Below, piece by piece: positions 43,955-64,000 of a DNA stretch of 64,000 bases (its first letter is position 1; the number at the start of each line of letters is the position of its first letter). Location of the stretch: positions 19,189-83,188 of the forward strand of contig DARO01000006.1 of the NCBI GenBank assembly GCA_002504405.1. Reading direction: 5' to 3'. The position numbers were made by a program, and so were the translations under genes. The notes beneath the pieces were generated by a model. It was given only the letters and a program-made list of their open reading frames with translations, searched no databases and was not told where the DNA came from. The stretch comes from Methanomassiliicoccaceae archaeon UBA71 (GTDB lineage: Archaea; Thermoplasmatota; Thermoplasmata; Methanomassiliicoccales; Methanomethylophilaceae).

Positions 43955-44529
43955 ACACTTTAAAATCGCAGAAGCCGGGGTGTCAGGGATCTTATCCTTG
44001 GAGATGTGGATTTTCCGTCTTCTCCGTCTGCTAGATCGATAAAAGCCAAGCTGTACTGGGGATTGTTCATATCATTCTCCTTCATGTCAAGAAGGTCCTC
44101 GGCAACCCGAGGACCCCCGGGGAGAACCGCGAAGCGGTCATATCGTATGTGCTCAACCATCCGGAGAAGTTCACGCCTCTCGAGGAGAACACAGACGACC
44201 CGATCCGGAACGAGTGGGCGTCCAAGATGAACGGACCAGCAGATTTCGGCTTCATGAGAGCTTTCAGGGGGAGATACCTGTAACCGAACCGGGCCGTCAG
44301 GCCCATCTTATTCATGTCATATCCATCTTCTTCATCTTCTACATTTCTTCTACGTGCTAATGTAGAAGATGTGTAGAAGATACATGGATGATGTTCGGAA
44401 CATCTTTCCATTATGTTGTTGTCGTTTTCTGGAGAAGTTCGACAGTCCTCCTATTGTCTCAATGTAACCTCTTTCAGCAATCATAATGAACAATCCAGTC
44501 CTTACACCCAGGTCGTTGCAGGTGATTCC

Positions 44530-45894
44530 TTGGAAAGGCAGAATGTTGAGTGGAAGAGGCAATGGGACGACAAATTCCTGAGGCAGATATGCGGTTTCGC
44601 CAACAGCGAAGGTGGTGTCATGAAGGTCGGTGTCGAGGATGACGGCACCGTGGTTGGTGTCAAGGACCCCAAGTCCGACATGAAATCCATTACTGACACC
44701 ATCGCCAACAAGCTCTCCATCTATCCGACCGTGGATGTCGATGAGAATACCAACGTCATCACCATAACCGTCCAGAGATCCCCCGTCCCTGTCGACCTCG
44801 ACGGAAAGTTCTACATCCGCACAGGCAACACCACACATGCCGCCGCGGGCAGGGAGTACGACATGCTGGTCTCCAGGAGGCTCAACATCTCCTGGTCCGA
44901 GATGCCGATCGACGGCCTGGACATCTCCTGTCTCGATGCTAACGCCATCGACTTCTTCCGCAAGAAGGCTAGGGCCAAAGGGACGATCAGTTACGAGAGC
45001 CTCGATGTGTCGGACAGGGATCTTCTGATGAAACTGAAGCTCATGACCAGGGATGGTGTCCTCACCCGTGCGGCGATACTCCTGTTCCACCCCAATCCCG
45101 AAGATGTTATCCTCGGCTCTGCAGTGAAAGTCGGGATGTTCGAGGGTACCGACAGTCCCGAGATCCTATACCAGGATTACGTCAGCGGCCCTCTGATATC
45201 GATGCCGGACCGTCTATGCGATCTCATCAACATAAAGTACTCCAAGAAGAGGATCTCGTACAAGGGCCTGAATATGGTGGAGACACCGCCATTCCCGGAG
45301 AAGAGCCTGAGGGAGGCGATACTGAACGCAGTGATGCACAATGACTACGGCTCCGGGATTCCCATCCAGATCCGCATATGGGAGGACAGGATGAGGATCG
45401 CAGACAACGGCGGCATCCCGTACAATTGGACCGAGAAGGACCTGATGGAGGACCACGAGTCCGTGCCTGTAAATCCGAGCCTGGCCAACGTATTCTTCCT
45501 GGCGGGTTTCGTGGAGGGCTGGGGGAGGGGGATCCAGCGCATCATGGATGGATACAGGGATCATCCTGACAAGCCTCCGACGTTCAAGGTCAGCCACCAG
45601 TCGTTCACCGTCATCCTCAGGAATGTCAATTACAGACTTGGGGACGATATTCCCGAAGATGTGCCCGTTGCGGAAACCGGTACCGTACCCCTGCTGAGAT
45701 TCCTGGACCATCCGGAAGGCAGGTCATCCCGTGAGATAGCCGAGTTCCTGGGTGTTGCTTCCACGAACGTTGCCACCAGGAAGATCACCCCTCTTATCGA
45801 TCGCGGTCTCGTCGAACGTACTGTCCCGGATGCCATCCGCAGCAAGAATCAGAGGTATCGCATCACGTGCCTTGGGGGGAGAAAGATACAATAA
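44530..45894 (+). CDS. Schlafen/AlbA_2 domain + HATPase_c_4-like domain + C-terminal winged HTH protein
   Basis: ERQNVEWK...ICGFANSEGG...GVEDDG (AlbA_2), LREAILNAVMHNDY...NPSLANVF...GRGI, and RSKNQRY. GGTGAT ribosome-binding site before TTG at 44530. Confidence 0.88.
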   Translation: MERQNVEWKRQWDDKFLRQICGFANSEGGVMKVGVEDDGTVVGVKDPKSDMKSITDTIANKLSIYPTVDVDENTNVITITVQRSPVPVDLDGKFYIRTGNTTHAAAGREYDMLVSRRLNISWSEMPIDGLDISCLDANAIDFFRKKARAKGTISYESLDVSDRDLLMKLKLMTRDGVLTRAAILLFHPNPEDVILGSAVKVGMFEGTDSPEILYQDYVSGPLISMPDRLCDLINIKYSKKRISYKGLNMVETPPFPEKSLREAILNAVMHNDYGSGIPIQIRIWEDRMRIADNGGIPYNWTEKDLMEDHESVPVNPSLANVFFLAGFVEGWGRGIQRIMDGYRDHPDKPPTFKVSHQSFTVILRNVNYRLGDDIPEDVPVAETGTVPLLRFLDHPEGRSSREIAEFLGVASTNVATRKITPLIDRGLVERTVPDAIRSKNQRYRITCLGGRKIQ

Positions 45895-51146: not shown

Positions 51147-51404
51147 TCTTTCGAGGCACCCCTGACAATTAGTAGGATTACGTATTATTTCGTCAAGAAG
51201 GATCTAGGCTTCAAGTTCGACCTCCGCCAGTGTCGCAGGACGTTCGGCCAGAGGTATCTGGACAAAGACCTCGACATCGAGTCCACGAGCGTTCTGATGG
51301 GGCACGCATCGACGAAGACCACGGAGGGATTCTACAGCAGGAAGAGGCTCGACATGGCCATCGAGAACGCCATCGGTACATGGGACGACAATGGTGGACA
51401 GTGA
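51147..51404 (+). pseudogene. Tyrosine recombinase/integrase C-terminal remnant
   Basis: Manual translation gives VKKDLGFKFDLRQCRRTFGQRYLDKDLDIESTSVLMGHASTKTTEGFYSRKRLD, i.e. box II (xxxR, LMGH, catalytic Y). No start codon; in-frame stop at 51144. Confidence 0.85.
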
Positions 51405-60859: not shown

Positions 60860-60951
60860 TCCTCTGCCTGATAGGGGCCTTCATCGGGTTCAGATGGAGC
60901 TTCTCCAGGTGCCTCCTGAAGGCGCAGACGCAGGTGAGCGATGTACTCTGA
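60841..60951 (+). CDS. 36-aa single-TM peptide
   Basis: MSALVLILCLIGAFIGFRWSFSRCLLKAQTQVSDVL. GGTGAGG ribosome-binding site; overlaps both neighbours. Confidence 0.5.
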   Translation: MSALVLILCLIGAFIGFRWSFSRCLLKAQTQVSDVL

Positions 60952-61762
60952 CACCGACCAGCCGAAGGGGTTCGACCCGACGGCGGACACCGTGCAGGAG
61001 CCCCGGCGGGACGCCGTCCCCGAGCAGGCCTACGCCGACATGCCGGGGGAGTCCCCGTGGAGGAAGGTGGCTGCTATTGCGGCGACCGCATCAGCCGGGT
61101 TCTTCGGAGTGTACGTGGCATGGAGGATCCTCGGAACCGACGCCATCGTCCAGGCCCTGCAGGAGTACTGGCCGGTCCTCCTGTCGCCGATAGCGGGCGC
61201 CCTGCTGGCCAGGTCCGTGGTCAGGTCCCTGTACCACCCCTCCGGCAGGGTTCTCATCCATCTGGATGTGGAGAACCATCTCCTGAGGGCGGTGTTCGTC
61301 CCCGACGACATGTTCCGCTACATCCAGCAGACGGGGAACAACGTGGTGTACCACACCGTGTCCGGCATCCCCGTCTACCTCGTGGAGGGGATGGACCTCG
61401 AACGCGGCATGGTGGACTACGGCTGGGTCCACACGGAGAACGCCCTCGTGGTGATGACCCGTGAGGACGCCTACCGCAAGTGGTACTCCACGCTCAACCT
61501 GGTGATGGAGGAGAACCTCGAACTGATGGTGCACCCGAAGGTAATCGGCCTGGGTTATGCCAGGTCCTCCCTTAGGAAGCACCTCGACAGGATCTCCTCC
61601 GCCCTCGGGCTGATCGAGGCCGACTACGAACCACACGACTCCGACGAGTCGGTCCCGGAGGACTACCTGGACCTCACCGTGAGCCCGAGGGATCCCGACG
61701 GCGGCCGTCCCCGCAAGGGCATGAGCCGGCGTCATGGAGGTGATTCGGATGGGCGCCAGTAA
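60941..61762 (+). CDS. Membrane protein preceding the ATPase
   Basis: Two N-terminal TM helices and a soluble C-terminal domain. GGTGA ribosome-binding site. Confidence 0.78.
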   Translation: MYSDTDQPKGFDPTADTVQEPRRDAVPEQAYADMPGESPWRKVAAIAATASAGFFGVYVAWRILGTDAIVQALQEYWPVLLSPIAGALLARSVVRSLYHPSGRVLIHLDVENHLLRAVFVPDDMFRYIQQTGNNVVYHTVSGIPVYLVEGMDLERGMVDYGWVHTENALVVMTREDAYRKWYSTLNLVMEENLELMVHPKVIGLGYARSSLRKHLDRISSALGLIEADYEPHDSDESVPEDYLDLTVSPRDPDGGRPRKGMSRRHGGDSDGRQ

Positions 61763-62369
61763 GGCCGTCGACTACATCTCGGGGATGGAGCACGGTGTCA
61801 TCATCGCCGTGGGCAGCGGGAAGCAGGGCAAGTCCTGCTCCCTCCACTCCCTGATAGACCTGTGCTGGCACACCCGTCCGGTGTACCTGCTTGATCCGAT
61901 GGAGTACGACGTATCCATGTTCCCCGGGTACCGCAGGGTCTCCGACCCCAACGACATCCCCGTGGGATCCGTGGCCGTCATAGAGGACGTGAACAGGGTG
62001 TTCCACTCCCGCGGATCGGGGAAGGATGCGACGCTCCAGCGCTGGCTGGGGATCATCTCCCACAAGTCCACCGTGGTGTGCATCACGACCCAATCGATGG
62101 CGGGAACAGACATTGAGTTCGTGAGGTCCCAGGACGCGGTGGTCATGTGCAAGAGGATGCACGACGAGGACCTGGCGTTCGAGAGGCCGGAGTTCAGGAC
62201 CAACCAGGTCCTGGCCAACATCTGGATCGGGGAGTCGATAAGGCGGCATCCGGAACTCGAGCCGAGGAGCTGGTGCTTCTTCCCCCGTTTCAACGAATCC
62301 GTCGCGATACCGAAGGTCTGGTGGTGGTCCTACAGGAACAGCCACATGCTCAGGGACGTGAGACTGTGA
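61749..62369 (+). CDS. Small FtsK/HerA-superfamily P-loop ATPase (A32/Zot-like packaging or extrusion ATPase)
   Basis: Walker A GSGKQGKS, Walker B AVIEDVN, and ISHKSTVVCITTQ...DIEFVR matching the xRH-hhh-TQ...D..hR pattern. Confidence 0.8.
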   Translation: MGASKAVDYISGMEHGVIIAVGSGKQGKSCSLHSLIDLCWHTRPVYLLDPMEYDVSMFPGYRRVSDPNDIPVGSVAVIEDVNRVFHSRGSGKDATLQRWLGIISHKSTVVCITTQSMAGTDIEFVRSQDAVVMCKRMHDEDLAFERPEFRTNQVLANIWIGESIRRHPELEPRSWCFFPRFNESVAIPKVWWWSYRNSHMLRDVRL

Positions 62370-62698
62370 GCTTCAACGTCACCACCGATCCAGAGACCGA
62401 CAGGATGCTCTCTTTGAGAGCCTCATCGAAAGTCCCCCTCCCAAGGGAGATCGCCCTCTGCGACCCCAGGGACGCGAGGGAGTACTTCTCCTGGATGGCC
62501 GTGTACGAGGCCTTCGGCCTTTCCGAACACCCGCTAGTGCAGCTCCTCGGCAAGAGGAGGCTCGACGCCGCGATGGCATCCGCCGTCAGCCGCGCGGAGC
62601 ATCTCGACCGCGTCGCCCACTACGGCGCGTGGCTGGGCAACGAGGGAGTGCGGATCGTCGACCTGGTCACCCCGACCCGGGACGACCCGAAGGGATGA
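62366..62698 (+). CDS. Hypothetical protein (110 aa)
   Basis: GTG start overlapping the ATPase stop; host-like codon usage. Confidence 0.6.
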   Translation: MSFNVTTDPETDRMLSLRASSKVPLPREIALCDPRDAREYFSWMAVYEAFGLSEHPLVQLLGKRRLDAAMASAVSRAEHLDRVAHYGAWLGNEGVRIVDLVTPTRDDPKG

Positions 62699-62884
62699 CG
62701 GTGCCGTCCCGGGCATCCCCCGCGCCGTCCCCGGCGCACCCTCCCGTCGACCCGCACCCCCATCCCACCGCCCCTGTCCCTCGCGACGCCTAGGACGCGT
62801 AGCGTCCGACGGCGGAGCCCAAACAGGCCGAGCGGGCGCGCCCGGCGCATGCCCAGCGCCCGCCGGCCGCCTTCCCGGGGCGGC
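62697..62884. other. Very GC-rich multi-hairpin non-coding region, candidate replication origin
   Basis: Stems at 62697-62708, 62722-62737, 62793-62807, 62832-62863 and 62866-62884, directly upstream of Rep. Confidence 0.5.
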
Positions 62885-62910
62885 ACCGCCGCCCCATCAT
62901 CGGAGATAAC

Positions 62911-64000
62911 ATGCAGATCGAAGACTACGACATCAGACTCGAGGAGATTCGCCTCCGCTCCCTCCAGAGGGAACTGGAGATGCAGGAGCGCCAGGGCCTC
63001 GCCGTCCAGGCGGCCCTAGCGGAGCATTCCGTCACATCCTACGTGAGGAACCTGCCGGTGGAGGACGCATCGTATCCTGCCATAGAGTACCTTAGATTTC
63101 ATCCGCAGGATGACGTCGGGGACGAGGTTCAAGAGGGAGTTCAGGAAAGGCTCCCCGAGACCATCGGGCAGGAAGGTCCCGGGCCCTACCGCCAGTACAT
63201 CGCATGGTGCATGCCCGCCCACGACCTCACCCGTCCCGACAGGAAGGGATGCGGCTTCATCCGCTCCCCCATGGGAGGCATCGTCTACTCCGCATGCCCC
63301 GACGATCCCGAGCATCACTGCAAGGGCAAGTGCAGGCACTGCTGGTCCCTCAGATGTCCGAAGTGCATGAACGACACAGCCCTCAAACGCGGGGTCCAGA
63401 TCGAGAGGCAGCTCCTTTCCTACAAGGTGCTCAGCGAGAAGAAGGGCATCTCTGTAGGAGACATCGGCCACTGGGTCGTCTCCCCACCCCAGGACCTCGT
63501 CAAGGGGCTCTGTCAGACCAAGCCGGAGTTCGACGACCTCTGCAGGCATGTCGACGACTCCATGGCAGCCTACGGCGCATCTGCAGGCGTCACCATCTTC
63601 CATCCCTGGCGCCAGAAGGAGGACTCGTGGGAGTTCTCACCGCACTTCCATATCCTGTGCTACGGACGCATAGACACCACGGCGTTCAGGAAGGCCAACC
63701 CCGGATGGCTCATCAAGAAGGTCCACGCCCGCGAGAGGATCAGGAGCATCAGGCACACCGCAGCGTATCTGACAACGCACATGGGCCTCGGGATGGCCGA
63801 GAGGGATCCAGACGACATCGACTGGGACCTGAAGGTCCTGGACATGCTGGTCCCCGGACTGCTCTCTCCGGGTGCATCCTACACCGAGAGGGACTACAAC
63901 GAGATGGGCGAGGGGAAGGGCAGGATGCTCGGAGACCTCTCGGGAGTCGACTGGGAGCAGTGGACCATGAAGTCGCTTTCCGTCGAGTTCAAGATCAGGT
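62911..64000 (+). CDS. HUH-superfamily rolling-circle replication initiator (3' end beyond the window; absent from ORF track)
   Basis: Manual translation is open from ATG 62911 to the window end. It has a Cys cluster CRHCWSLRCPKC, motif I HWVVSPP, HPWR, motif II PHFHIL and motif III AAYLTTH. Confidence 0.88.
   Translation, partial: MQIEDYDIRLEEIRLRSLQRELEMQERQGLAVQAALAEHSVTSYVRNLPVEDASYPAIEYLRFHPQDDVGDEVQEGVQERLPETIGQEGPGPYRQYIAWCMPAHDLTRPDRKGCGFIRSPMGGIVYSACPDDPEHHCKGKCRHCWSLRCPKCMNDTALKRGVQIERQLLSYKVLSEKKGISVGDIGHWVVSPPQDLVKGLCQTKPEFDDLCRHVDDSMAAYGASAGVTIFHPWRQKEDSWEFSPHFHILCYGRIDTTAFRKANPGWLIKKVHARERIRSIRHTAAYLTTHMGLGMAERDPDDIDWDLKVLDMLVPGLLSPGASYTERDYNEMGEGKGRMLGDLSGVDWEQWTMKSLSVEFKIR

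Follow-up and report, generated by a model that had tools for sequence, protein, structure and literature searches.

The window examined here, a stretch of 64,000 nucleotides (nt) from contig DARO01000006.1 of Methanomassiliicoccaceae archaeon UBA71, ends inside an open reading frame (ORF) that begins at position 62911 on the plus strand. This ORF probably, though by no means certainly, encodes the replication initiator (Rep) of an integrated pleolipovirus-like element of ~14 kb in a Methanomethylophilaceae-type genome, and the protein would represent a new family of HUH-type rolling-circle enzymes. Replication of the element would then involve single-stranded DNA (ssDNA) intermediates. The gene is conserved, its predicted fold resembles that of predicted viral initiators, it keeps its place behind the same virus-like genes, and a covarying two-hairpin element lies directly upstream of it.

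A recognizable replication gene is missing from many archaeal viruses and plasmids. In 2026, a study of the Rep-Arvir family filled such a gap, which explained a switch between lysogeny and replication and yielded shuttle vectors (PMC13107129). If the present reading is true, an entire group of gut-methanogen proviruses would gain an assigned replication mechanism, in hosts that are of interest for host methane and trimethylamine metabolism. It would also annotate more than 1,000 'hypothetical' protein clusters and add a distinct HUH active-site variant (Y-x3-H, with several extra invariant His residues) of interest for HUH-tag and ssDNA bioconjugation. No genetic tools are known for the Methanomassiliicoccales, and if the reading is true, a defined rep-plus-origin cassette of about 1.7 kb could seed them.

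The gene and its protein family

The window corresponds to C14:19189-83188 of a 1.62-Mb genome in 14 contigs that is 99% complete. A first-pass annotation, made from the letters of the window, had described an uninterrupted frame from 62911 to the window end and read it as an HUH Rep. This frame is real. It stays open from the ATG at 62911 (+) up to the window end, and the full contig supplies a stop 414 nt past the window, giving a complete gene of 500 amino acids (aa) at C14:82099-83601 (+) with 113 homologues. The GC content at third codon positions (GC3) is 0.84 vs 0.42 at second codon positions. The ratio of nonsynonymous to synonymous substitution rates (dN/dS) is about 0.12, with a range of 0.07-0.14 between close pairs, indicating purifying selection. 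The Rep-like ORF is a real gene under constraint, and it carries the following features.

62911..64000, continuing to window-equivalent 64413, plus strand: Rep-like ORF, aa 1-363 of 500 (ORF, homologues, AlphaFold2 model, dN/dS).
63250..63366, plus strand: Cys/His cluster C114-C152, a putative Zn-binding module (conservation, sub-threshold Zn_Tnp_IS91 and zf-HC3 matches, model).
63469..63489, plus strand: motif I-like strand HWVVSPP with the invariant H187 (strand 185-191; H-x-[VI]-x-SPPQ in nearly all distant relatives).
63598..63615, plus strand: FHPWRQ with H231 and R234, a strand in a hairpin with the HUH strand (strands 223-235 and 240-252).
63640..63657, plus strand: HUH motif PHFHIL with H245 and H247 (invariant in all alignments; third core strand, 240-252).
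63763..63780, plus strand: motif III, A-Y286-L-T-T-H290, with the presumed catalytic Tyr (invariant Tyr and His; helix 280-288).

The four strings quoted in the first-pass annotation all lie at the expected codons: CPDDPEHHCKGKCRHCWSLRCPKC at aa 129-152 (63295-63366), HWVVSPP at aa 187-193 (63469-63489), PHFHIL at aa 244-249 (63640-63657), and YLTTH at aa 286-290 (63766-63780). Their core motif residues are invariant among the homologues. The Cys cluster read from the first string holds in part: C129, C144, C149, and C152 are conserved, and C137 and C141 are not. The observation that YLTTH replaces the usual YxxK extends to the whole family, as Y286-x3-H290 is invariant in close and distant relatives.

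The 113 homologues come from a large protein collection, where all are unnamed or 'hypothetical' and none has a Pfam domain; the named sources are Methanomethylophilaceae or Thermoplasmata. Aligning 101 of them as the close family leaves C114, C129, H135, H143, C144, C149, C152, D155, H187, S191, P192, Q194, R234, H245, H247, Y286, H290, C387, and C390 invariant. An exhaustive profile search of 1.84 billion cluster representatives found 1,070 proteins at E <= 1e-3, of which 464 reach E <= 1e-10. Of the 1,070, many are 290-500 aa long and match profile positions ~95-305 only, which hold the Cys module and the core. In a distant set of 56 relatives drawn from them, 21-35% identical to each other, the HxH and Y-x3-H motifs, four Cys, the His of motif I and that of FHPxR, and the C-terminal CxxC are invariant. 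The family signature is H-x-[VI]-x-SPPQ, followed by W-x-x-[SG]-PHFH-x-x-G-x-G and Y-L-L-[ST]-H-x-G. The conserved candidate Zn ligands are C114, C129, C144, C149, and C152; within the close family alone, H135 and H143 can be added.

The 56 distant relatives share no invariant Asp or Glu, and this speaks against chemistry of the primase or PD-(D/E)xK type. An archaeo-eukaryotic primase or PrimPol was rejected, as the invariant DxD/E plus D/E of such enzymes is missing and the invariant set consists of Cys, His, Pro, and Tyr only.

The invariance of HxH, the Tyr, and two or three further His spans Thermoplasmatota to Nitrosopumilales and Asgard loci, with identity down to 22% (tblastn). A scan of GTDB species genomes with a tighter alignment subset found relatives in Methanoperedens, Methanolliviera, Methanoregula, Nitrosopumilales, Bathyarchaeia, Promethearchaeota, and many Thermoplasmatota, along with three 'bacterial' bins. 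Two of these bins, L081 (labelled Lachnospiraceae bacterium) and L086 (labelled Dialister hominis), carry the archaeal module of a small membrane protein (p150), ATPase, and Rep, with 28-29% identity for the Rep and 46-47% for the ATPase; L081 also carries p273. These are probably archaeal virus contigs mis-binned into bacterial metagenome-assembled genomes.

Two homologues contain an in-frame TAG, at codon 270 in L021 (G141:C12, 504 aa) and at codon 115 in L022 (G061:C1, 487 aa). The two positions differ and fall at non-conserved sites, and both homologues are otherwise full-length. Because Methanomassiliicoccales encode pyrrolysine, these codons could reflect read-through or pyrrolysine insertion rather than pseudogenization.

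No relative of the Rep-like protein was found among deposited phages and plasmids (tblastn) or among IMG/VR viral contigs. The family is absent from the curated libraries searched (Pfam and PHROGs), the PDB, and the literature examined. Medvedeva et al. 2023 (Nat Microbiol 8:2170) reportedly gave the first listing of Methanomassiliicoccales proviruses encoding VP4-like fusogens, and that work may already annotate the gene.

Predicted fold and active site

The AlphaFold2 model, built on the 101-sequence alignment, has a predicted local distance difference test score (pLDDT) of 89.5 and a predicted template modeling score (pTM) of 0.85. A model of the core alone (aa 150-320) has a pLDDT of 92. 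The N-terminus is a long helix (aa 3-35), which is followed by a disordered linker (aa 57-88). The Cys cluster forms a small beta module (aa 96-152), and C149-x2-C152 opens a long helix (aa 153-177). The core then runs through beta 185-191, alpha 204-220, beta 223-235, beta 240-252, alpha 256-262, beta 267-270, alpha 280-288, and beta 293-297. Toward the C-terminus follow a helical segment and a beta-rich domain with CxxC (aa 357-419), and the chain ends in a helical tail. As modeled, the N-terminal helix is probably a coiled coil, and the Cys-cluster module probably binds Zn and DNA. The protein has no P-loop and thus no helicase domain.

Conservation in the close family is at least 90% for H231 and complete for R234, and the His equivalent to H231 is invariant in distant relatives. 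H231 is a candidate third metal ligand, and the extra invariant His residues H187 and H231 suggest a RepB- or relaxase-like metal site with three His. Y286 and H290 sit on or just past helix 280-288 within the consensus YLL[ST]H, with H290 one helical turn after Y286. Rep-type HUH domains share this order of elements, in which the HUH strand is followed by the Tyr helix.

Compared with predicted viral structures using Foldseek, the full model has 9 matches at E <= 1e-3, the best of them with a probability of 1.0 and Rep matches at E of about 3e-4. The top 50 from this library include 8 named proteins, and every one is a replication initiator: a Microvirus replication initiator, an ORF2/G2P-domain protein, VP4, a Circoviridae Rep, and Reps of CRESS and uncultured viruses. 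The predicted RRM/ferredoxin-like fold class fits an HUH enzyme; the TBP-like fold seen in Rep_trans and Rep-Arvir is excluded. At the level of predicted structure, specific fold similarity is to predicted viral Reps only.

The provirus and the candidate origin

The GC-rich element (0.62-0.69) covers roughly 14 kb, starting near 51.2 kb in the window and ending near window-equivalent 65.5 kb, and all of its genes are on the plus strand. It begins with p131, p67, p304, four large secreted adhesin-like proteins (Flg_new, PKD), and small membrane proteins. Next come genes for a membrane protein of 273 aa and a Walker-A ATPase of 211 aa, an ORF of 97 aa, and then the Rep-like gene itself, followed by p168 and p122. 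The partners directly upstream of the Rep-like gene are listed below.

60941-61762, plus strand: 273-aa membrane protein (p273).
61734-62369, plus strand: 211-aa Walker-A ATPase.
62405-62698, plus strand: 97-aa ORF.

Eight independent loci (L007, L010, L059, L061, L081, L085, L086, and L087) retain the order p273, ATPase, small ORF, Rep, with identity of the Rep ranging from 51% to 28%; in L010, a p122 homologue comes after the Rep gene. The Rep-like gene is a syntenic core gene of pleolipovirus-like proviruses of Methanomassiliicoccales, located directly after the membrane-protein/ATPase pair. In the closed genome G096, from the same genus, a homologous element is collinear with window 51625-64382. 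This element is flanked by direct repeats that are 74-80% identical, and the right repeat begins just past the rep stop. Across the order, the Rep-like gene is found in 41 of 201 genomes, mostly of the same genus, with 1-8 divergent and often fragmentary copies each. Such patchy, divergent copies show the pattern of accumulating and decaying integrated elements, not that of an insertion sequence.

The Rep-like gene is preceded by a conserved non-coding element.

62821..62895, plus strand: two-hairpin cis element, candidate origin (conserved, covarying, ending 15 nt before the ATG).

Its layout is AAACAGGCCG, hairpin 1 (62826-62868), the unpaired GCCTTCCC (62869-62876), and hairpin 2 (62877-62895); in the conserved element, the linker between the hairpins reads CGCCGGCCGCCTTCC. 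Conservation of the 90 nt that precede the ATG extends to loci whose Reps are 42-60% identical. The element is unique in the 1.6-Mb genome, where GCCGGCCGCCTTCC and ACAGGCCGNGCGG are each found a single time, at this site. Among 61 genomes of the genus, a covariance model found 23 copies in 16; at least 18 of these copies immediately precede a full-length homologue in the same orientation, and N-terminally divergent solitary Rep copies are without it. In a 26-sequence alignment fitted to the covariance model, 95.8% of cells are paired and 13 of 18 pairs show compensatory changes, a result that 0 of 500 shuffles equaled and that collapses in slid controls. Folded as ssDNA, the element has a z of -3.1. 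No Rfam family matches it. Because it covaries and accompanies full-length homologues, the element is a candidate origin, and it looks as a double-strand origin beside a rep gene would.

In the proposed mechanism, the protein would recognize the two-hairpin element upstream of its own gene, after excision or on a circular form. A metal held by H245 and H247 plus a third ligand (H231, H290, or H187) would polarize the scissile phosphate. Y286 would cut one strand, most plausibly within or beside the invariant unpaired GCCGCCTTCC, and would become bonded to the 5' phosphate, leaving a 3'-OH for the host polymerase and helicase. Given the single conserved Tyr, with the invariant H290 in the place of the second Tyr of Y2 enzymes, termination would probably occur through strand transfer by a second subunit or through His-assisted hydrolysis.

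Downstream of rep lies a piece of ~70 nt with a small hairpin, CACAGGCC-TGAAAGCAC-GGCCT. It is common to a paralogue on contig C5, both G096 repeats, and, loosely, one locus at 55% Rep identity, and it may be a second origin-type or attachment (att)-type element. The spacer after rep (L004:5414-5671, C14:83602-83859) contains CACAG five times vs 0.2 expected, a count reached in 0 of 5000 shuffles. The same spacer holds a 13-nt direct repeat, ACCTCCGACACAG, present twice, and a perfect 10-bp inverted repeat, GACCTCCGAC...GTCGGAGGTC. CACAG 'iterons' were rejected as a general feature, as the enrichment was not replicated in divergent relatives.

Some copies stand outside the virus module. The C5 paralogue (L005, G000:C5:54174-55565, minus strand, 492 aa) shares 88% nucleotide identity from codon ~43, with a different N-terminus, host-like flanks, and a dN/dS of 0.14. 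It lacks both the virus module and the upstream hairpin element; it may have been domesticated, or it may be an integrated replicon of minimal size. At L009, the Rep is preceded by a p131 homologue only, and this pairing fits a circular form because p131 is the first gene at the left end and rep lies near the right end. Shorter relatives occur in integrated elements across archaeal phyla: next to tyrosine integrases in Methanoperedens and Bathyarchaeota, near a methylase and a Cas4-like nuclease in Nitrosopumilus, and near a HerA/FtsK ATPase and a methylase in Asgard. More tentatively, these relatives and the Rep-like protein may form one pan-archaeal, previously unrecognized family of HUH initiators (at least 1,070 representatives) with a Zn treble-clef-like module, a His-rich site, and Y-x3-H. 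This family could be the missing Rep of gut Methanomassiliicoccales pleomorphic viruses and of small elements in Nitrosopumilales, Bathyarchaeia, Methanoperedens, and Asgard, acting at a double-hairpin origin and terminating unlike the two-Tyr flip-flop of phiX174 gpA.

The left end of the element carries a tyrosine recombinase remnant at window ~51190-51400 (+), where only the C-terminal ~70-85 codons are left (LMGHASTKTTEGFYSRK, then a stop). This remnant starts at the switch from AT-rich DNA (GC 0.39) to the GC-rich element. A split integrase, with the C-terminal tail at the left and the N-terminal part at the right, was rejected: the right-end ORFs end in stops and have no integrase similarity. 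A 221-bp direct repeat with 88.7% identity links window 44084-44304 to window-equivalent 65340-65560 (L004:6340-6560, C14:84528-84748). It consists of the 3' end of p122 and a GC hairpin; the right copy lies in a complete 122-aa ORF, and the left copy follows a stop. The repeat was rejected as a clean att pair, as its left copy is a p122 fragment, probably the remnant of an older related element.

A tRNA 3'-end-like fragment, TTCAAATCCGGGATTCCGA (T-loop, T-stem, and acceptor strand), lies on the minus strand at L004:5500-5530 (C14:83688-83718), window-equivalent ~64500-64530, about 90 nt after the rep stop. ARAGORN found no intact tRNA in the window or the 17 kb beyond, and the fragment looks like an att-site scar. 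Immediately to the right of the element, a lower-GC island (L004:6619-10273, C14:84807-88461) encodes a 315-aa DNA methyltransferase-like ORF and a 914-aa ORF, a pair that looks from its sequence like a restriction-modification system. Between the p122 remnant and a 1449-aa adhesin gene, window 44413-45894 (+) encodes a 493-aa protein with Schlafen AlbA_2, HATPase_c_4, and winged helix-turn-helix (wHTH) domains that matches phrog_12156 'DNA helicase' at E 1.6e-63. This Schlafen-type protein may be a cargo or defense gene of an older element.

Rival readings and known systems

Several results weigh against an HUH initiator. Searches of Pfam, which covered all HUH Rep and transposase models, PHROGs, and PDB sequences (phmmer) returned nothing for either the window fragment or the full Rep-like protein, and no match exceeded the threshold when the distant relatives (first 10, then 56) and the family profile were taken to Pfam, PHROGs, and a profile search of the PDB. 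When hhalign was run against a gokushovirus VP4 alignment (phiMH2K seed, every member carrying PF23343), the family aligned over 16-17 columns around HUH only, with a probability < 2%; the paired segments are SPHFHILCYG and RPHWHAILFNY. For the full model, nothing in the PDB passes E 0.04, and the sole HUH entry is the origin-binding domain of pMV158 RepB at E 0.15. For the core alone, the PDB yields ferredoxin-like folds of a generic kind, such as CutA1 and ribosomal proteins, at E >= 0.005, and its top 50 matches include no HUH enzyme. With an integrase tail only, the provirus has no intact integrase and may be unable to excise, and it is perhaps defective. The cis element could instead be a promoter, an operator, or a 5' leader structure. 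Finally, motif-based HUH calls for the archaeal Reps of pRT1 and pAMT11 proved wrong (PMC13107129), and for this reason the HUH initiator reading is put no higher than probable. The first-pass claim that the protein is the HUH replication initiator of the element thus keeps the support of the fold, the viral-library matches, the synteny, and the hairpin; it finds none in a solved HUH structure or in the insignificant VP4 profile match.

Three rivals were considered, all ranked below the HUH replication-initiator reading. The one that survives best is a non-nuclease, namely a Zn-dependent DNA-binding/regulatory or virion-associated protein of generic RRM/ferredoxin-like fold in which HxH and Tyr are structural or metal-binding. 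The generic PDB fold matches, the sequence profiles that link to no HUH family, and the precedents of pRT1 and pAMT11 all suit this explanation. It is nevertheless unlikely: a strand His-x-His, a helix Tyr, and two or three more His that are invariant across phyla form a typical catalytic pattern, the named viral-library matches are all replication initiators, and the module has no other recognized candidate for a replication gene.

Next in rank, and about as unlikely, is an HUH ssDNA transposase or integrase (IS91/ISCR-like, or acting by Rep-mediated integration) that moves the element and possibly replaces the missing tyrosine integrase. Sub-threshold Pfam matches among the 56 distant relatives are to Zn_Tnp_IS91 (PF14319) in 10 (best E 0.0015) and to zf-HC3 in 7; those to Zn_Tnp_IS91 would fit this rival. 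So would the up to 8 copies or fragments per genome, the solitary copies (C5, L009) that are without the virus module yet under purifying selection, the integrase tail as the only part retained by the provirus, and the conserved non-coding pieces that flank rep on both sides. Set against these, 0 of the 56 relatives match Y2_Tnp, Y1_Tnp, or any Rep family, and Y2_Tnp and Y1_Tnp stay unmatched even at E <= 1. Having a single conserved Tyr, the protein falls outside the Y2 enzymes. Within one genome the copies diverge instead of being near-identical, the gene has a fixed position inside a 14-kb multigene module, solitary copies lack the upstream element, and relatives in other phyla have tyrosine integrases alongside. 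The first-pass annotation had named clustering with stand-alone IS91/IS200-like transposases as one outcome that would count against it; the protein has no match to their models, and its gene does not stand alone between its own ends.

Least probable is an HUH nickase with another role, either starting ssDNA packaging into pleomorphic virions or relaxase-like transfer: the gene comes directly after the morphogenesis ATPase module, the protein is without a helicase domain, and pleolipoviruses include ssDNA-packaging members, yet packaging is more a refinement than a rival, with known rolling-circle ssDNA virus Reps performing both replication and packaged-strand production, and the element has no conjugation genes.

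Among known systems, Rep-Arvir (DUF7845, PF25227; RepSNJ2 of SNJ2, NAR 2026) is an archaeal virus/plasmid initiator that was long 'hypothetical' (PMC13107129). It carries a catalytic Tyr, its origin is a conserved hairpin beside rep, and the replication operon of SNJ2 depends on circularization (PMC13107129). Its fold is TBP-like and related to Rep_trans, followed by a wHTH, with acidic metal ligands (PMC13107129). The Rep-like protein is similar in being a formerly hypothetical protein of a pleolipovirus-type element with a Tyr and a hairpin next to rep. Membership in Rep-Arvir was rejected, as there is no PF25227 match and the predicted core is b-a-b-b-a-b with HxH, not TBP-like.

The Reps of HRPV-1/HHPV1 and of the Geoglobus pleomorphic viruses are HUH-type rolling-circle initiators (PMC10919331, PMC13107129). 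The virus core module here matches that of the elements encoding the Alphapleolipovirus Rep (HRPV-1/HHPV1 ORF1, PF07232) and the pGT5/pTP1-like Geoglobus Rep. Unlike these, the Rep-like protein has no match to PF07232 or another Rep Pfam model, a different motif III, and an added Zn module.

IS91/ISCR Y2 transposases have, as is predicted for the Rep-like protein, a Zn-binding module at the N-terminus followed by the HUH domain. The IS91 motif III, YLxRY, resembles the YL..H context of the family. The Cys-module similarity to PF14319 is weak and recurrent, all of it below the gathering score and with no match for the window protein. Unlike IS91/ISCR, 0 of 57 proteins match PF04986 (Y2_Tnp) at E <= 1, and the gene is embedded in a multigene virus-like module with divergent copies instead of standing alone with near-identical ones. 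On the favored reading, the Rep-like protein is neither an IS91 nor an IS200 transposase, nor is it Rep-Arvir.

The best fold matches are to replication initiators of the Microviridae (Gokushovirinae) VP4 and phiX174 gpA type (Foldseek E 2.5e-4 to 7e-3, probability up to 1.0). VP4 has the same linear layout of Cys cluster, long helix, motif I strand, HUH (RPHWH vs SPHFH here), and Tyr helix; its segments are PCRKCLPCR, a long helix, FLTLTY, RPHWH, and YVARYAAKK. Neither VP4 and gpA nor the Rep-like protein has a helicase domain. VP4 and gpA differ in having two Tyr (Y-x3-Y, YVARY) where Y-x3-H is found here, and motif I is FLTLTY in VP4 and HWVVSPP here. The Rep-like protein is extended by a coiled coil at the N-terminus and by about 200 residues at the C-terminus, its hosts are archaeal, and its replicon is much larger (about 14 kb of double-stranded provirus DNA). 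Membership in PF23343 (REP_ORF2-G2P) finds no support, with no Pfam match at E <= 10 and the hhalign result given above. The resemblance to VP4 is at the level of fold and motif.

IS200/IS605 TnpA (Y1) shares a single Tyr with a functional residue four positions on in the same helix; in IS608 TnpA, Y127 is catalytic and Q131 is a metal ligand. Unlike these transposases, which are about 150 aa long and have no Zn module, the Rep-like protein has 500 aa, no PF01797 match, and another genomic setting. The two-Tyr enzymes gpA, VP4, IS91, and Helitron carry Y-x3-Y, and other Reps carry YxxK. The invariant Y-x3-H sets the Rep-like family apart from both groups and, by analogy, recalls IS608 TnpA.

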